DNA of 32,000 nt from Microcystis aeruginosa NIES-2549 (lineage in GTDB: Bacteria; Cyanobacteriota; Cyanobacteriia; Cyanobacteriales; Microcystaceae). The position numbers and the translations under genes were made by a program. The stretch spans positions 4,050,001 through 4,082,000 of the forward strand of contig NZ_CP011304.1 in assembly GCF_000981785.2 (NCBI RefSeq). The letters are read 5' to 3'. This document shows positions 865 to 18,083 of this stretch, piece by piece (the first letter of the stretch is position 1; every line of letters begins with the position of its first letter). Below the pieces are notes generated by a model. The model made no database searches. It saw only the letters and a list, made by a program, of their open reading frames with translations, and was not told where the DNA came from.

Positions 865-2442
865 TTAAGACAGCATCCTCAGATAATTATGATAAACGGT
901 TTGGGTATGGGGATGATTTTCCCCTAATCTTTCCCTGACAATATTAATCGCTTCTAGAAGGAGAGGTTCCGCTTCTGTGTACCTGCCTTGGAAATAGTAC
1001 AAGTGTGCTAAATTGTTGAGGGAAAGTGCCACATGGGGATGATTGTCTCCTAAGTGGGTTCGAGTTGCGGTTAAACAATCTTGACAGTAAGGTTCAGCAG
1101 TAGCATACAATCCTTGTCCTTCATAATAACGAGCTAAACCCGTATAGGACCAAGCTAAATCCTCATCAGCGATATATTGGGGATATTCCCCGACAGATGC
1201 TTGTAGATGGAGAAGGAAAGGTTTAAATTCTTCAACGATTTCTATAGTGGGATTCTGTGGCATTTCTGCCGATTTTTTGGCCATAATCCCACAATAACGG
1301 CGTTTTGCTGGTTCTGCGTGGGGTGATGCTTCTAACTTATCCCGAAAATAGCGACGCAACAGGGGATGAATTTCATACCAACCATCACCCTTATCCTGAA
1401 CTAAACTCAGGTGAACTAAACTATCGGTTAACCATTCCTCCACTGTATCCCCATCCTCATCGGGAAATAAATCCAGAATCATCTCCTTGGGAAAGGGCGC
1501 AAGAGCGAATAAACTGAGATAAAGTGCCAAAATTTGCGCTTCTGGTTCGCTATGCAACTCCTCCCAACTGAGATTAAAGGCAGCTTTTAACCCTCTTTCC
1601 GCAGTCATTTCCCCATGAAACTTGGGATTTTTGTCTAAACTTGGCTCATCTAAGCCGTTTTCGGCTAATTTCTGCCGTATTTTGCTGATTTTCCAATCCT
1701 GTCGTCGTACCAGCAACCTTGCCACCAATTCTAACGCCAAGGGTAAATAACCTAAGTCCTGACATAATAATTTAGCTGCCTCGATTTGTGTGTCAATTCT
1801 GTTGTCTTTAAGGTAGGAACGCAATAAATCAAGTGCATCTTTTTCTTTTAAAACTTCTACCCGAAAAGTTGCAATTGTCGCTGATAAATATTCCTTGCGA
1901 GTGGTAATTAAAACCTGAAAGCGTTTCTCTTCTTGCGGTGGTAAATAATCCCTAATTTGCTGATAATCCCGCACATCATCAAAGATAATTAAGACATTTC
2001 CCGTTAACCAGTTTTGCCAACAATAACGAATTTTTACGTCTAATTCTCCCTCATCTGGTAAAGTTAATTTGAGATGTACCCGCGCAAAATCTAAAATAGA
2101 AGTACCGATAAAACCGCCGTCACTTTCTGCCACATTTAACCAACATATACCCCCCGGATAGGCTTTTTCCCGCCATTCTTGCCAGCCAAACTGTCTGGCT
2201 AGTTCGGTTTTACCTATGCCTCCCATTCCCGTTAAGGTAGATATAGCAAGCTTTTGGGATTGTTGTAATTGCTTTTTTAAGTCAATTAATTCCTGATCCC
2301 TACCAACAAATTTAGGGATATTACTATTAGATAAATTGTGAGGATTGGGTTGAGGAGGCTCTTGGTTAGGCGGATAATTATAAATATTTTGATTGTCAAT
2401 ATTGATATTGTCTTGAGCATAATTGACTATTTTTTGATCCAT
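865..2442 (-). CDS. STAND NTPase: NB-ARC domain with C-terminal TPR repeats (NLR-like)
   Basis: 525-aa ORF. P-loop GMGGIGKT (nt 2206-2229), Walker B LIIFDDV, VLITTR and GYLPLALE (GLPL-type) motifs. The C-terminal kinesin-light-chain-type TPRs read YYEGQGLYATAEPY and LYYFQGRYTEAEPL. The N-terminal 45 aa are short and N/Q/P-rich. Confidence 0.85.
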   Translation of the reverse strand: MDQKIVNYAQDNINIDNQNIYNYPPNQEPPQPNPHNLSNSNIPKFVGRDQELIDLKKQLQQSQKLAISTLTGMGGIGKTELARQFGWQEWREKAYPGGICWLNVAESDGGFIGTSILDFARVHLKLTLPDEGELDVKIRYCWQNWLTGNVLIIFDDVRDYQQIRDYLPPQEEKRFQVLITTRKEYLSATIATFRVEVLKEKDALDLLRSYLKDNRIDTQIEAAKLLCQDLGYLPLALELVARLLVRRQDWKISKIRQKLAENGLDEPSLDKNPKFHGEMTAERGLKAAFNLSWEELHSEPEAQILALYLSLFALAPFPKEMILDLFPDEDGDTVEEWLTDSLVHLSLVQDKGDGWYEIHPLLRRYFRDKLEASPHAEPAKRRYCGIMAKKSAEMPQNPTIEIVEEFKPFLLHLQASVGEYPQYIADEDLAWSYTGLARYYEGQGLYATAEPYCQDCLTATRTHLGDNHPHVALSLNNLAHLYYFQGRYTEAEPLLLEAINIVRERLGENHPHTQTVYHNYLRMLS

Positions 2443-2494
2443 ATTGTTAACATAATGCTGTGAAAAAAATGTTTAATTATACAATATTAACACA

Positions 2495-3013
2495 TCAAAA
2501 GGGGAAGGGCGAACGCAATTCGCCCCTACAATGGCATTTTTTTCGGTTCCGTCGGGGTGCATTGCACGCACCCAAGACATTACATGGTGATATTTTGTTC
2601 ATTAATATTAATGTCCCTTTGAGAAAAATTAACAATTTTTCAATGGTTTTGATATAGGTTTTTTGTCCAGAGGATTGAGATTGCAAACCCTTAGCAATAT
2701 TGTTAAGAATATCCTTTAAATTAGGTAAAGGTTGGGATTCTACAATGTCAACCAACTCGGTTATAATTTGGCTTAATTCGGGACTGGTTTTAGCAACAGA
2801 TTCCACCTCCAGAATTGCCTGTCCATAATCTAAAGGTTGTTCGGGTGCTTTTTCAATTGCGGTGACAGTATCCGGAGAAACTTGTTTCAGGGAAGTGAGA
2901 AATTTTTCTGTTTGTTGCCAAACTTTCTCTCCCACTTTTTCACCGGTTTTCTCTAACGCTTTAGTGGCAATAATCGAACCAACTGCGATCACTGATCCTG
3001 TAAGAGGGTCCAT
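2495..3013 (-). CDS. Hypothetical helical protein immediately upstream of, and co-oriented with, the NB-ARC gene
   Basis: The ORF is 2495..3079. ATG 3013 (MDPLTGSVIAVGSIIATKAL...) is preferred over the TTG at 3079. It has a hydrophobic, small-residue-rich N-terminal helix followed by an acidic helical region. The last ~27 codons lie inside a GC-rich repeat module. No family recognised. Confidence 0.5.
   Translation of the reverse strand: MDPLTGSVIAVGSIIATKALEKTGEKVGEKVWQQTEKFLTSLKQVSPDTVTAIEKAPEQPLDYGQAILEVESVAKTSPELSQIITELVDIVESQPLPNLKDILNNIAKGLQSQSSGQKTYIKTIEKLLIFLKGTLILMNKISPCNVLGACNAPRRNRKKCHCRGELRSPFPF
2507..2573. repeat. GC-rich double-hairpin repeat module
   Basis: The first hairpin is gggcgaa-cgcaa-ttcgccc (2507-2525) and the second is gggtgc-attgcac-gcaccc (about 2555-2573). 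The module lies in the 3' end of ORF 2495..3013 and 53 nt or more upstream of the NB-ARC start. Confidence 0.6.
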
Positions 3014-5132: not shown

Positions 5133-5230
5133 GGCTCTCTTAGGTTTGGTGGGTATTATGTATTCTAAGATATAGTCCTGCTGGCGAGTGAATGGAACGA
5201 ACCACAAAGACACAGAGGACACAAAGATAG
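5133..5230. mobile_element. MITE-like repeat, family 1, partial copy
   Basis: It begins ggctctcttaggtttggtgg and contains ...ctgctggcgagtgaatggaacgaaccacaaagacacagaggacacaaag. This is the reverse complement of the right part of the copy at 7069-7212. A short re-duplication of its start (cttaggtgggtattatg) follows at about 5252-5270. Confidence 0.7.
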
Positions 5231-5303
5231 AACGCTACTTATTTCTGCGTTTCTTAGGTGGGTATTATGAAAGATATTTGAATGTTAGATACAGTAAAAA
5301 TCA

Positions 5304-6872: not shown

Positions 6873-7068
6873 TCGGGGGATAAATTGCCTGTTAACAGGT
6901 GTGGATAACTTTTTTGCCGAAAAATTGCCAATTAGACCCTATTTTCACCAGCTAAAGGCTGGGTTGGGTGATAATAGCCAGATCATTCTGTCTAGTTTTA
7001 GCTTGACGGTGAGCGGCGGATATATTAATTAATTTTAGTAGTTGCTGACAACAACGACTAAGACCATT

Positions 7069-7212
7069 TGGCTCTCTTATTCTTTGTGTGATAAGTTTAA
7101 CTTATATAGTAGTGATTGATCTCTGTGTCCTTTGTGTCTCTGTGGTTCCTTCCACTCGCTCGCCAGATAGACTGTATCTTAGAATACATTTTATCCACCA
7201 AACCTAAGAGAG
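7069..7212. mobile_element. MITE-like repeat, family 1, apparently full-length (~144 bp)
   Basis: Terminal inverted repeats are ggctctctta (7069-7078) and taagagagc (7204-7212). The internal sequence is shared with 5133-5230, 11491-11590 and 16353-16600. No coding capacity. Confidence 0.75.
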
Positions 7213-7384
7213 CTGGGAGAGGGGAGTAAACTGATCACTGGTTACTGAAAAGACTCCCCAACAGCCATCTCACCCCGGGGAAAACCGCTATAGAATAGAT
7301 AAAAAAGAGAATTGCGAGGAAAAAACCCTGTCTTTTAACCCGATTGTCATTCCCCCTTCCCCAGAAAATCCCGCTCGCTATCTA

Positions 7385-11490: not shown

Positions 11491-11590
11491 GGTTTGGTGA
11501 GTGAGTGGAAGGAACCACTCCAGACACAAAGGACACAGAGATCGATCGCTCCTATATAATTTAAACTGATCACACAAAGAATAAGAGAGC
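11491..11590. mobile_element. MITE-like repeat, family 1, internally deleted copy
   Basis: ggtttggtgagtgagtggaaggaaccactccagacacaaaggacacagag ... aaactgatcacacaaagaataagagagc. It shares both the core and the terminal taagagagc with 7069-7212. Confidence 0.7.
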
Positions 11591-11689
11591 TAATCTAAGG
11601 ATAGGGGGTTAAGATGGTTCTTAGCCAATAAATGAACCAGATTTGGGGGTATAAACCCCCAATAATAACCAATTTTAGCTGTGAATGAC

Positions 11690-14659: not shown

Positions 14660-14862
14660 GGCGATTCAAGTAAAAAAATTATCAACGGGATTCAGCTTTC
14701 AGCAAGCTACCGTCAGCCTTCAGCCTAAAATTCAGTTTTTGAGCTTTTTTAGCTGATTGCCGCTCTTAATGGCTCTTTTCTCTGGTTTATAACTCTTACC
14801 GAAGGACTAATCAAAGCTAATGGCCGATCGCTTTTGCTGAACACTCTATTGTACTCGATCGA

Positions 14863-14963
14863 GTGGGGAAGTGGGGAAGTGGGGTGTGGGGTGTGGGGTG
14901 TAGGGTGTAGGGTGTGGGGTGTGGGGTGTAGGGTGTGGGGTGTGGGGTGTAGGGTGTGGGGAA
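14863..14963 (+). repeat. G-rich tandem array: GTGGGGAA x2, then 11 heptamers GTGGGGT/GTAGGGT, then GTGGGGAA
   Basis: Read unit by unit from 14863 to 14963. It lies in the putA-ndhH divergent intergenic region and gives 14 consecutive G3-G4 tracts on the + strand. Confidence 0.92.
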
Positions 14964-14990
14964 GTATAAATAAAAATAATCTCCTAAATC

Positions 14991-15039: not shown

Positions 15040-15115
15040 CCGATAGTCCTTGTGTATTGTCAAGGCGTTTACTTATAATAACTTTAAAAAGATTTTCGGG
15101 ATCATCGGTAGCCCT

Positions 15116-16300
15116 ATGGCAAAAATTGAAACGAGAACAGAACCCATGGTTTTAAACATGGGACCCCATCACCCTTCGATGCACGGAGTTTTGCGCTTAA
15201 TCGTCACCCTCGACGGGGAAGACGTGATTGACTGTGAACCCGTGATCGGTTATCTTCATCGGGGCATGGAAAAAATTGCCGAAAATCGCACTAATGTCAT
15301 GTACGTTCCCTACGTTAGTCGTTGGGATTACGCCGCAGGGATGTTTAATGAGGCGATTACGGTCAATGCTCCCGAAAAATTAGCCGATATCGCCGTTCCC
15401 AAACGAGCGCAATATATCCGGGTGATTATGTTGGAACTCAACCGCATCGCTAACCATTTACTCTGGTTAGGCCCCTTTATGGCGGATGTAGGCGCACAAA
15501 CTCCCTTTTTCTACATTTTCCGGGAACGGGAGATGATTTATGACCTCTGGGAAGCTGCCACGGGAATGCGGTTAATTAATAATAATTATTTCCGTATTGG
15601 TGGCGTGGCGGTGGATTTACCCTACGGATGGGTGGATAAGTGCGAGGATTTCTGTGACTATTTTGACCCAAAAGTGGACGAATACGAGAAATTAATCACT
15701 AATAACCCGATTTTCCGCCGTCGTATTGAAGGGATAGGCTGCATTACCAGAGACGAAGCGATTAACTGGGGTTTATCCGGTCCGATGTTGCGCGCTTCTG
15801 GGGTGAAATGGGATTTAAGAAAAGTTGACCATTACGAGTGTTACGACGATTTTGACTGGGAAGTGCATTGGGAAACCGCCGGCGATTGTTTTGCTCGTTA
15901 TCTGGTGCGGATTCGGGAAATGCGCGAATCGGTGAAAATTATCCGGCAAGCACTGAAAGGTTTACCCGGTGGTCCCTACGAAAATCTGGAAGCAAAACGG
16001 ATGGCAGAAGGGAAAAAATCAGCTTGGAATGATTTTGACTATCAATATATCGCCAAAAAAGTCGCCCCCACTTTTAAGATTCCTAAAGGTGAACATTATG
16101 TGCGCTTGGAAAGTGGTAAAGGGGAATTAGGTATCTTTATCGTCGGTAATGATGATGTTTTCCCTTGGCGTTGGAAAATTCGGGCCGCCGATTTTAATAA
16201 TCTTCAAATTCTGCCTCATATCCTCAAAGGGGTAAAAGTTGCCGATATTATGGCGATTTTAGGCAGTATTGATATTATTATGGGGTCAGTCGATCGCTAA
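15116..16300 (+). CDS. ndhH: NAD(P)H-quinone oxidoreductase (NDH-1) subunit H
   Basis: [28 protein letters not shown] at ATG 15116 gives the canonical 394 aa. The ORF-track start at 15050 adds 22 non-conserved residues. Confidence 0.93.
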
Positions 16301-16343: not shown

Positions 16344-16352
16344 GGCCCAGTG

Positions 16353-16600
16353 ATACAGTCCTGCTGGTGAGCGAATGGAATAAACCACAAAGGCACAAAG
16401 GACACAAAGATTGATCGCTCCTATAAGTAGGTAGGCGTTAAAAATTATCAGACACCACCCTTATCAAGGGTAGGGTTGATTCATGAATCAACCCTACCTT
16501 ATCAAGGGGGGCAGGGGGGATCGAACCTAAAATCCATTTTTAATTTAATTATAACCAGCTACTTATAAGTTAAACTGATCACACAAAGAAGAAGAGGGCC
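16353..16600. mobile_element. MITE family 1 copy interrupted by a nested MITE family 2 insertion
   Basis: Family 1 sequence runs (atacagtcctgctggtgagcgaatgg...gacacaaagattgatcgctcctata) up to about 16423 and resumes at about 16566 (taagttaaactgatcacacaaagaagaagagggcc). Uninterrupted copies read ...gatcgctcctatata-atttaaactgatcacacaaaga. Confidence 0.7.
16424..16565. mobile_element. MITE-like repeat, family 2 (~142 bp), copy 1
   Basis: taagtaggtaggcgttaaaaattatcagacacc ... 28-bp palindrome 16470-16497 ... cttatcaaggggggcaggggggatc ... ccagctactta. The termini are TAAGTAG/CTACTTA. It is near-identical, in inverse orientation, to 17941-18083. Confidence 0.8.
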
Positions 16601-17940: not shown

Positions 17941-18083
17941 TAAGTAGCTGGGTTATAATTAAATTAAAAATGGATTTTAAGTTCGATCCCCCCTGCCCCC
18001 CTTGATAAGGTAGGGTTGATTCATGAATCAACCCTACCCTTGATAACAGGGGTGTCTGATAATTTTTAACGCCTACCTACTTA
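17941..18083. mobile_element. MITE-like repeat, family 2, copy 2 (inverted relative to 16424-16565)
   Basis: taagtagctgggttataattaaattaaaaatgg ... gatcccccctgccccccttgataagg ... palindrome 18010-18037 ... ggtgtctgataatttttaacgcctacctactta. Confidence 0.8.

Follow-up and report, generated by a model that had tools for sequence, protein, structure and literature searches.

How would a gene pair laid out for amyloid signaling operate if one of its two proteins no longer carried the signaling motif? The question is raised by a locus near one end of the window, the 32,000-nucleotide (nt) stretch of Microcystis aeruginosa NIES-2549 that was analyzed here (assembly GCF_000981785.2, contig NZ_CP011304.1, positions 4,050,001 to 4,082,000). 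Its minus strand encodes a NOD-like receptor (NLR) of 525 amino acids (aa) with NB-ARC and TPR domains and, immediately upstream, a small helical protein. The original prediction, made from the sequence alone, had proposed that the NLR begins with an amyloid-type signaling peptide and that the small neighbor is its membrane-targeting effector, and it had found no matching motif at the C terminus of that neighbor. Our analysis indicates that the locus is very probably a Bell/BASS5/NB-ARC-TPR amyloid-signaling pair, a cell-death module of the abortive-infection type that is orthologous to the pair of M. aeruginosa PCC 7806 and appears inactivated in the present strain. The features of the locus are collected in Table 1.

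Table 1. Features of the Bell/NLR locus; coordinates are window positions.
Feature	Position	Strand	Evidence or remark
NLR gene, 525 aa: BASS5 motif, Pro-rich linker, NB-ARC, about 2 TPR units	865..2442	(-)	
NLR N-terminal BASS5 amyloid-signaling motif, aa 4-23, KIVNYAQDNINIDNQNIYNY	2374..2433	(-)	
NB-ARC NTPase domain, aa 50-265	1648..2295	(-)	Pfam PF00931, E 1.7e-19, model positions 3-227 of 248
Walker A GMGGIGKT, aa 72-79	2206-2229	(-)	
TPR sensor region, aa 428-512, two TPR_12/TPR_10 stretches	907..1161	(-)	Pfam
True intergenic region, 137 nt, two GC-rich palindromes (2507-2528, 2554-2575)	2443..2579	(-)	
Bell effector gene, part in original frame, aa 1-126, MDPLTG...KTIEK	2636..3013	(-)	
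Frameshift site, A5 tract; A6 in intact orthologues	2636..2640	(-)	window GAAAAATTG, L001-L003 GAAAAAATTG
C-terminal BASS5 motif of Bell, KIVNFSQRDININEQNITM, with its TAA, at present in the -1 frame	2580..2639	(-)	frame translation
Out-of-frame tail of the present open reading frame, LLIFLKGTLILMNKISPC...SPFPF and stop	2495..2635	(-)	intact orthologues without tail

The Bell effector gene, its frameshift, and its NLR partner

The small open reading frame (ORF) as presently read extends from the ATG at 3013 to the stop codon at 2495-2497, lies 52 nt upstream of the NLR gene on the same strand, and encodes a 172-aa protein that starts with MDPLTGSVIAVGSIIATKAL (longer stretch MDPLTGSVIAVGSIIATKALEKTGEKVGEKVW). 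When its 3' part was translated in all frames, a BASS5 motif was found in the -1 frame (nt 2639-2583, with TAA at 2580-2582), directly after the run GAAAAATT. The motif is identical to NLR residues 4-22 (KIVNYAQDNINIDNQNIYN) at 11 of 19 positions, and no other stretch of the 32 kb, translated in six frames, matches as well, the runner-up reaching 7 of 19. The statement that the partner has no matching motif at its C terminus is thus correct for the present frame, but the motif exists at 2583-2639, one frame away.

A protein search with the frame-corrected Bell sequence returned 399 relatives, the closest of which are 144-aa Microcystis proteins (P0002-P0004) that are 97% identical over 100% of the query and end in ...KTIEKIVNFSQRDININEQNITM. 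The DNA of intact orthologues reads GAAAAAATT, with an A6 tract where the window has A5; we therefore assign the difference to a 1-nt deletion at 2636-2640, which makes the present ORF continue out of frame across the intergenic region. This read-on is the 46-residue tail LLIFLKGT...SPFPF, which is not the product of a repeat insertion as had been supposed. A repeat insertion between the genes was considered and rejected: the two palindromes of the intergenic region have no further copy elsewhere in the window, and both occupy the same position in strains whose 144-aa Bell gene is intact, the intergenic region itself being conserved there.

Pfam, NCBIfam, and PADLOC gave no meaningful match for the small protein, and no housekeeping family of Pfam or NCBIfam accounts for it, in line with the original prediction. 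Its AlphaFold2 model is an all-helical bundle of seven helices with a disordered tail (residues 135-144; mean predicted local distance difference test score 82.5), so that the description of a same-strand, all-helical ORF with a hydrophobic N-terminal helix stands as well. The relatives share a conserved helical domain of about 110 aa followed by swappable C-terminal motifs of about 20 aa, for example KIVNFSQRDININEQNITM, NQKLADSIKNLFQGTFSNNTFNF, and IQNIEKAINAAQTQTIDQRGSTFNI; a conserved domain with interchangeable C-terminal motifs is the behavior of Bell-domain effectors carrying BASS motifs. A Bell signature has been described as an acidic residue at position 2-3 plus a hydrophobic helix, and an N-terminal "MEPIS" region matters in Bab and Avast2; the window protein begins MDPLT and its relatives MEPLT, followed by a Gly-containing hydrophobic helix, which fits both descriptions. 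The window has the adjacent, collinear gene for a helical Bell protein (about 120-140 aa in such pairs), an assignment that rests on orthology to listed members, since no Pfam model for Bell was hit. The motif of about 20-25 aa expected on both partners is present in the DNA in the -1 frame only, and the encoded Bell protein as sequenced is without it, so the motif appears to be shared by descent and not by the present reading frame.

The NLR gene, whose reading frame is still open, has the architecture of NB-ARC or NACHT plus TPR or WD repeats that characterizes such sensors. In Pfam, nothing beyond NB-ARC and TPR_12/TPR_10 was detected on the 525-aa protein (TPR_12 with E 1.4e-22), as expected from the original description of a short TPR sensor without an enzymatic effector domain. 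The N terminus is MDQ-KIVNYAQDNINIDNQNIYNY-PPNQEPPQPNPHNLSNSNIPKFVGRD, a peptide of hydrophobic and N/Q/D residues that is followed, as had been noted, by a proline-rich stretch; the counterpart in Microcystis orthologues is KIVNYAQGNINIDKQNIYNY, and the peptide is kept in P0121, P0127, P0145, and P0165. The exact window protein is present in NCBI. Microcystis NLR orthologues are 87-93% identical to it, are 568-890 aa long, and have more TPR units: those of 650-890 aa contain six to nine near-identical 42-aa units, versus two TPR stretches in the window. At its 3' end (865-1161) the window gene stops at ...NYLRMLS, and the orthologues have an additional tail, QLPEAELRQRFPEEVVEMLKPKPPHP. The comparison suggests that the TPR repeats have contracted and that the 3' end has been altered. 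The NLR stop codon (865-867) falls within a 40-nt inverted repeat (711-750 / 832-871) whose arms, separated by 81 nt, are 83% complementary; the repeat may be a small inserted element in place of the usual C-terminal tail. PADLOC did not assign the NLR to Avs/AVAST, the top match being Avs4 at E 0.05 and 8.8 bits over the P-loop only.

The system is already known, because the orthologous PCC 7806 pair (CAO86847.1 and CAO86846.1) is printed in Table S2 of Dyrka et al. (2020, bioRxiv 10.1101/2020.01.06.895854); the window holds this published BASS5 Bell/NLR pair as a frameshifted allele, and the newness that the original prediction implied does not survive. The same table places the orthologous M. 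aeruginosa PCC 7806SL pair (ARI84452.1 / ARI84451.1) and six more Microcystis pairs in bass_05. Its strings for the PCC 7806SL pair are SQSSGQKTYIKTIEKIVNFSQRDIN and KIVNYAQGDIN, and the "bass_05 all_07" rows of seven Microcystis pairs give ...KTIEKIVNFSQRDIN / KIVNYAQGDIN. The window motifs differ from the printed strings by 1-2 residues and belong to the BASS5 family, and the actual gap from Bell stop to NLR ATG is the 137 nt of Table 1, compared with the 141 nt listed for PCC 7806. The central proposal of the original prediction, NLR-associated amyloid signaling with an adjacent Bell/HeLo-like effector, is borne out by the motif match after frame correction and by these orthologues, and the synteny of the small gene with NB-ARC or NACHT genes holds across cyanobacteria.

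Proposed mechanism and state of the window allele

From the Bell/BASS family and the experimentally studied Bab/Agp system we infer the following relay. A ligand sensed by the TPR region would license oligomerization of the NB-ARC domain, the clustered N-terminal BASS5 peptides of the NLR would nucleate an amyloid fold, and this fold would template the same-type BASS5 peptide at the C terminus of Bell. The templated Bell protein would then release its N-terminal hydrophobic helix 1 (MDPLTGSVIAVGSII...) and damage the membrane, with cell death or abortive infection as the outcome. Amyloid or prion formation by the motif, together with seeding from the NLR side, is reported only for BASS1 and BASS3, both in Podospora and in vitro, and for BASS11, and a role of amyloid signaling in phage defense for Bab/Agp in E. 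coli (Ibarlosa et al. 2024, bioRxiv 10.1101/2024.11.07.622273).

As sequenced, the window module looks inactivated, either as a pseudogene or as an OFF allele: the encoded Bell protein is without the BASS5 peptide, so it could not be templated and the relay would be broken. Other Microcystis loci appear to have failed on the opposite side. In L001-L003 and L008 (e.g., L001:5435-5720) the Bell gene is intact at 144 aa, the NLR is cut after 47 codons (MDQKIVNYAQGNINIDKQNIYNYPPNQ...PRFVR and stop), and an unrelated acyltransferase gene on the other strand comes next; this decay is the reciprocal of that in the window. In M. aeruginosa NIES-3807, the Bell gene has the same frameshift (P0007) and the NLR is annotated from residue ~157 only (P0185), so that both genes look damaged. 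We read these cases as recurrent inactivation of a costly suicide module in Microcystis, whose populations would break the locus repeatedly, now at the effector and now at the sensor, the pattern expected of such a system.

Several points weigh against the interpretation as an inactivated cell-death pair. We infer the cell-death and defense functions of BASS5 and of cyanobacterial Bell proteins by analogy; PADLOC made no call for the locus; Foldseek of the Bell model against the PDB retrieved no solved structure at E <= 0.001; and the A5 tract itself supplies further arguments, which bear on two other explanations.

The first of these is that the Bell gene is truly intact, A5 being a homopolymer error of assembly in a working BASS5 pair. 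Most Microcystis orthologues do have A6 and 144 aa, and the 4.29-Mb length of the single contig that has the exact NLR sequence points to a long-read assembly, so that a homopolymer error is possible. We nevertheless consider this explanation unlikely. The identical 172-aa product, tail included, is encoded on a 20-kb contig of NIES-3807, an independent assembly, and the protein cluster holds four sequences; the shared product argues against a private sequencing error, without excluding one.

Alternatively, the frameshift could be real and either bypassed or reversible, which seems to us decidedly improbable. A bypass would take the form of -1 slippage of tRNA-Lys on A-AAA-A, giving a low, possibly safe, dose of full-length protein; a -1 slip at 2636-2640 restores the exact wild-type sequence ...TIEK-IVNFSQRD..., and Bell-family relatives seem to depend on recoding in that junction region, as described below. 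However, the A tract is without a canonical X XXY YYZ heptamer, and R1, a covariance model of the hairpin that follows the UGA in relatives, has no match in the window, no other downstream stimulator having been searched for. Reversal would be slipped-strand phase variation between A5 and A6, for whose efficient switching the tract is short. Plain deletions of the same locus in other strains speak against bypass and reversal alike.

A further proposal, that the NB-ARC/TPR protein is a regulator or a TPR protein associated with ribosomally synthesized and post-translationally modified peptides (AfsR-like or of the FxSxx-COOH system) and that the small ORF is unrelated, draws on FxSxx/AfsR-type names of some NLR orthologues in NCBI and on partial NCBIfam matches of the NLR (FxSxx_TPR at 151 bits, AfsR at 83 bits), but is hardly credible, since these scores fall far under the curated cut-offs of 300 and 1430 bits, Pfam detects no DNA-binding SARP domain in the NLR, and the motif common to the neighbor, with its conservation across cyanobacteria, would be left unexplained.

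In-frame UGA junctions in related loci

The junction of the two genes was followed in relatives. We fetched 80 genome loci, one per species and all from cyanobacteria, which with L004 and L006 made 82, and scored the stop codon of the Bell ORF and the sequence after it; a Bell ORF of 120-180 aa was found in 77 of the 82. The ORF ends in TAA in 17 loci and in TAG in five, and in none of these does an in-frame continuation reach at least 100 codons. It ends in TGA in 55 loci, 48 of which continue in frame for at least 100 codons, and of the 47 in which TGA is followed by C, 44 do so. As background, 164 long ORFs of the same loci end in TAA (81), TAG (46), or TGA (37), with TGAC in three and an in-frame continuation in two. 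The loci in which Bell and NLR share one frame across a UGA are L004, L006, L010-L034, L039, L045-L049, L055-L060, L065-L066, L071, and L079-L086 (e.g., L004:5433-5470).

The continuations are 138-1303 aa long and encode NB-ARC-TPR, NACHT-HEAT, or other STAND proteins, occasionally a transmembrane segment plus a PsbP-like domain or TPR units only. Every one opens with the conserved linker L-[QEK]-[SP]-[SP]-E-R-E-R-x-K-L-x-P and is without a motif of its own, and usually no ATG, GTG, or TTG precedes the conserved FVGR that opens NB-ARC. For the one-frame Microcystis NLR orthologues P0122, P0126, P0141, P0149, and P0151, the annotated starts (MPRFVGRD, MDLKKQ, MSTLTGMGGIGKT) have been forced inside or just before NB-ARC. 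Such forced starts are a systematic annotation artifact of the in-frame UGA. Decay is seen at some of the one-frame loci: within NB-ARC, L035 has another in-frame stop (L035:4436-4700), L069 has a TAG two codons past the UGA (L069:4418-4430), and in L077 Bell is interrupted after ~27 codons with the hairpin described below retained (L077:4001-4570).

Of the 22 loci with TAA or TAG after Bell, nine have an NLR that could be placed no more than 2.5 kb downstream, as does one TGA locus, L074. All of these NLRs are separate genes that start at an ATG of their own, and all but that of L087, whose motif is different, have a BASS5-type motif of their own. The separate-gene form of the TAA/TAG loci is the arrangement of the window, which has a TAA, the intergenic region of Table 1, and a separate ATG, and in which UGA-C with its stem was not found. 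The 5' end of the window NLR is collinear with the one-frame junction of its Microcystis relatives L006 and L011, motif codons aligning with motif codons. The window has TAT-AAT-TAT at the position of TGA-CTG-GAG in L006 and L011, retains the 5' stem arm CCGCCT, has lost the 3' arm, and is nearly identical to both from CCT-CAC-AAT-TTA-TCT-AAT-AGT on. Since the junctions are collinear, the arrangement in two genes, as in the window, and that in one frame are interconvertible forms of a single system.

The sequence after the UGA follows the consensus UGA-CUR-NAG-YCG-YCYG-(loop, mostly AACGGGAA)-CRGRY-AAAG, in which RNAalifold predicts a 5-bp helix starting 8 nt after the UGA. Paired cells amount to 98.3%, against 14-38% with the 3' strand slid, and three of the five pairs vary on both sides; one alternates between U-A (23 loci) and C-G (22), another between C-G (29) and U-A (11). 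The peptide encoded over the hairpin stretch varies (SSERER, SSGGEQ, PPVKEQ, SPPGEG) and codon periodicity is absent there, which places the constraint on the RNA. A pseudoknot between the loop GGGA and a downstream UCCC would be 76% paired, with almost no covariation. Rfam, which has no family for the hairpin, gave nothing for the window or for the junctions of six relatives; the covariance model hits each one-frame locus exactly once and the window not at all.

Metagenome contigs scanned for the exact pattern yielded further sites, so that UGA-C with the stem is present at 48 related genome loci and 50 metagenome sites. Wherever the contig permits a judgment, the ORF closed by the metagenome UGA is small (47-190 aa, most above 100 aa, with a single exception of 309 aa) and its tail is rich in N, Q, and G. 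At most sites the frame stays open beyond the UGA; at seven it closes again after 1-63 codons, apparently in decayed copies. Upstream of the UGA lie members of this Bell family, members of a second Bell-like subfamily (MEPLTAGAIATLAF...; L091, L095, L097, L119, L124), or other small helical ORFs (L102, L103, L109, L111, L118). At L116:1609-1640, the cassette of UGA, hairpin, and linker follows the 309-aa ORF, which is alpha/beta-hydrolase-like (HSMGG motif) and not Bell.

UGA followed by C is reportedly the weakest terminator context in E. coli. Programmed readthrough of the UGA would be the most economical explanation of the UGA-C plus hairpin junction, and we lean toward the view that in most relatives Bell and NLR form one frame with a programmed leaky UGA and two products, the two-gene locus of the window being a derived, "resolved" form. 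One gene would then supply an abundant Bell-BASS effector and a rare Bell-BASS-NLR sensor; the sensor would carry the very same motif copy as the effector, with the stoichiometry fixed and motif identity guaranteed. Alphaviruses and several plant viruses have a comparable element, the type II readthrough signal (UGA-CUA with a stem after an 8-9-nt spacer), and the pseudoknot of murine leukemia virus (MuLV) likewise lies 8 nt from the stop (Firth et al. 2011, PMC3159437).

Selenocysteine insertion at the UGA is an alternative to programmed readthrough. Re-initiation at the codon after the UGA is disfavored: that codon is CUG in 25 loci, CUA in 21, CCA in four, CUU or CUC in two, and GUG in three (type-B loci), the fourth CCA locus being L086, which is in the sequence listing but outside the alignment. 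Because the codon is CUA or CCA, neither of them initiating, in about half of the loci, re-initiation is unlikely. Widespread pseudogenes are contradicted by the strict UGA-C usage, the long intact downstream ORFs, and the covarying stem.

A search of 1.84 billion representative proteins gave no sense-codon fusion of Bell, BASS, linker, and NLR; the long Bell proteins that it did return combine Bell with HEAT or with a dynamin-like GTPase and are without motif or linker. The words readthrough, stop codon, and frameshift are absent from Dyrka et al. (2020) and Ibarlosa et al. (2024). The junction motif of Gloeothece citriformis PCC 7424 (L004), KLVNFAQGDIN, is not in Table S2 of the former, as is to be expected of a screen in which both annotated proteins need a motif. 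Full-text literature searches returned no description of a UGA readthrough junction, an absence that is no proof of novelty, and the UGA-C plus hairpin junction of the relatives appears undescribed. If our reading of leaky termination is correct, the junction would be one of the rare conserved instances of programmed stop-codon readthrough in cellular genes of bacteria, the impossible annotated starts of many cyanobacterial NLR genes would be explained, and surveys demanding a motif on both annotated proteins would have missed much of the Bell/NLR family. It is thus this junction in relatives, more than the window allele, that makes the larger point.

Window context and known systems

The GC content is 40.6% for the NLR gene, 37.1% for the partner gene, 48.6% for lysC, and 43.1% for the whole window. 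The pair is, as originally remarked, more AT-rich than lysC, but lysC is itself the GC-rich outlier, and so the pair is not clearly foreign DNA. Elsewhere in the window, a repeat family resembling miniature inverted-repeat transposable elements (~70-106 nt, both orientations, 81-92% identity) occupies intergenic positions at 5134-5239, 7068-7213, 11522-11593, and 16352-16425. Inverted repeats of 133 nt, 97% complementary, at 16424-16556 and 17951-18083 enclose ~1.4 kb, which looks like an insertion-sequence-like element. A G-rich tandem array of heptamers (GGGGTGT / AGGGTGT) lies at 14860-14971, upstream of the ORF at 15050-16300.

Among known systems, the type II signals of alphaviruses and tobraviruses (UGA-CUA/CGG) and the MuLV pseudoknot resemble the junction of the relatives only, which has UGA-CUR, an 8-nt spacer, and a stem with compensatory changes. 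Those signals are eukaryotic or viral, with stems of 11 or more bp or a pseudoknot, whereas the relatives are bacterial and their putative signal has a stem of 5-7 bp; the window is without the element. HET-S/NWD2 of Podospora anserina works on the same principle, in that the N-terminal motif of an NLR templates the C-terminal motif of a membrane-targeting helical effector encoded by the adjacent gene, but it is eukaryotic, with a HeLo domain, an HRAM motif, and a NACHT-WD sensor, and is an analogue and not a demonstrated homologue.

Bab/Agp of E. coli, too, consists of two genes, with a small helical pore-type effector that has a conserved N-terminal helix (the "MEPIS" region) and whose C-terminal amyloid motif is common to the adjacent sensor. 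It differs in using BASS11 instead of BASS5 and in its shorter effector domain ("Babybell", ~80 aa), and Bab/Agp is experimentally validated whereas the window system is known from sequence. The PCC 7806/7806SL pair has in common with the window the species group, the gene order, the Bell string SQSSGQKTYIKTIEKIVNFSQRDIN, the NLR string KIVNYAQ.DIN, and a spacing of ~140 nt; the window allele departs from it in having A5 and not A6, so that the Bell motif is out of frame, and in an NLR of only ~2 TPR units. The window adds a naturally inactivated allele to the published class of bacterial NLR/amyloid cell-death modules.

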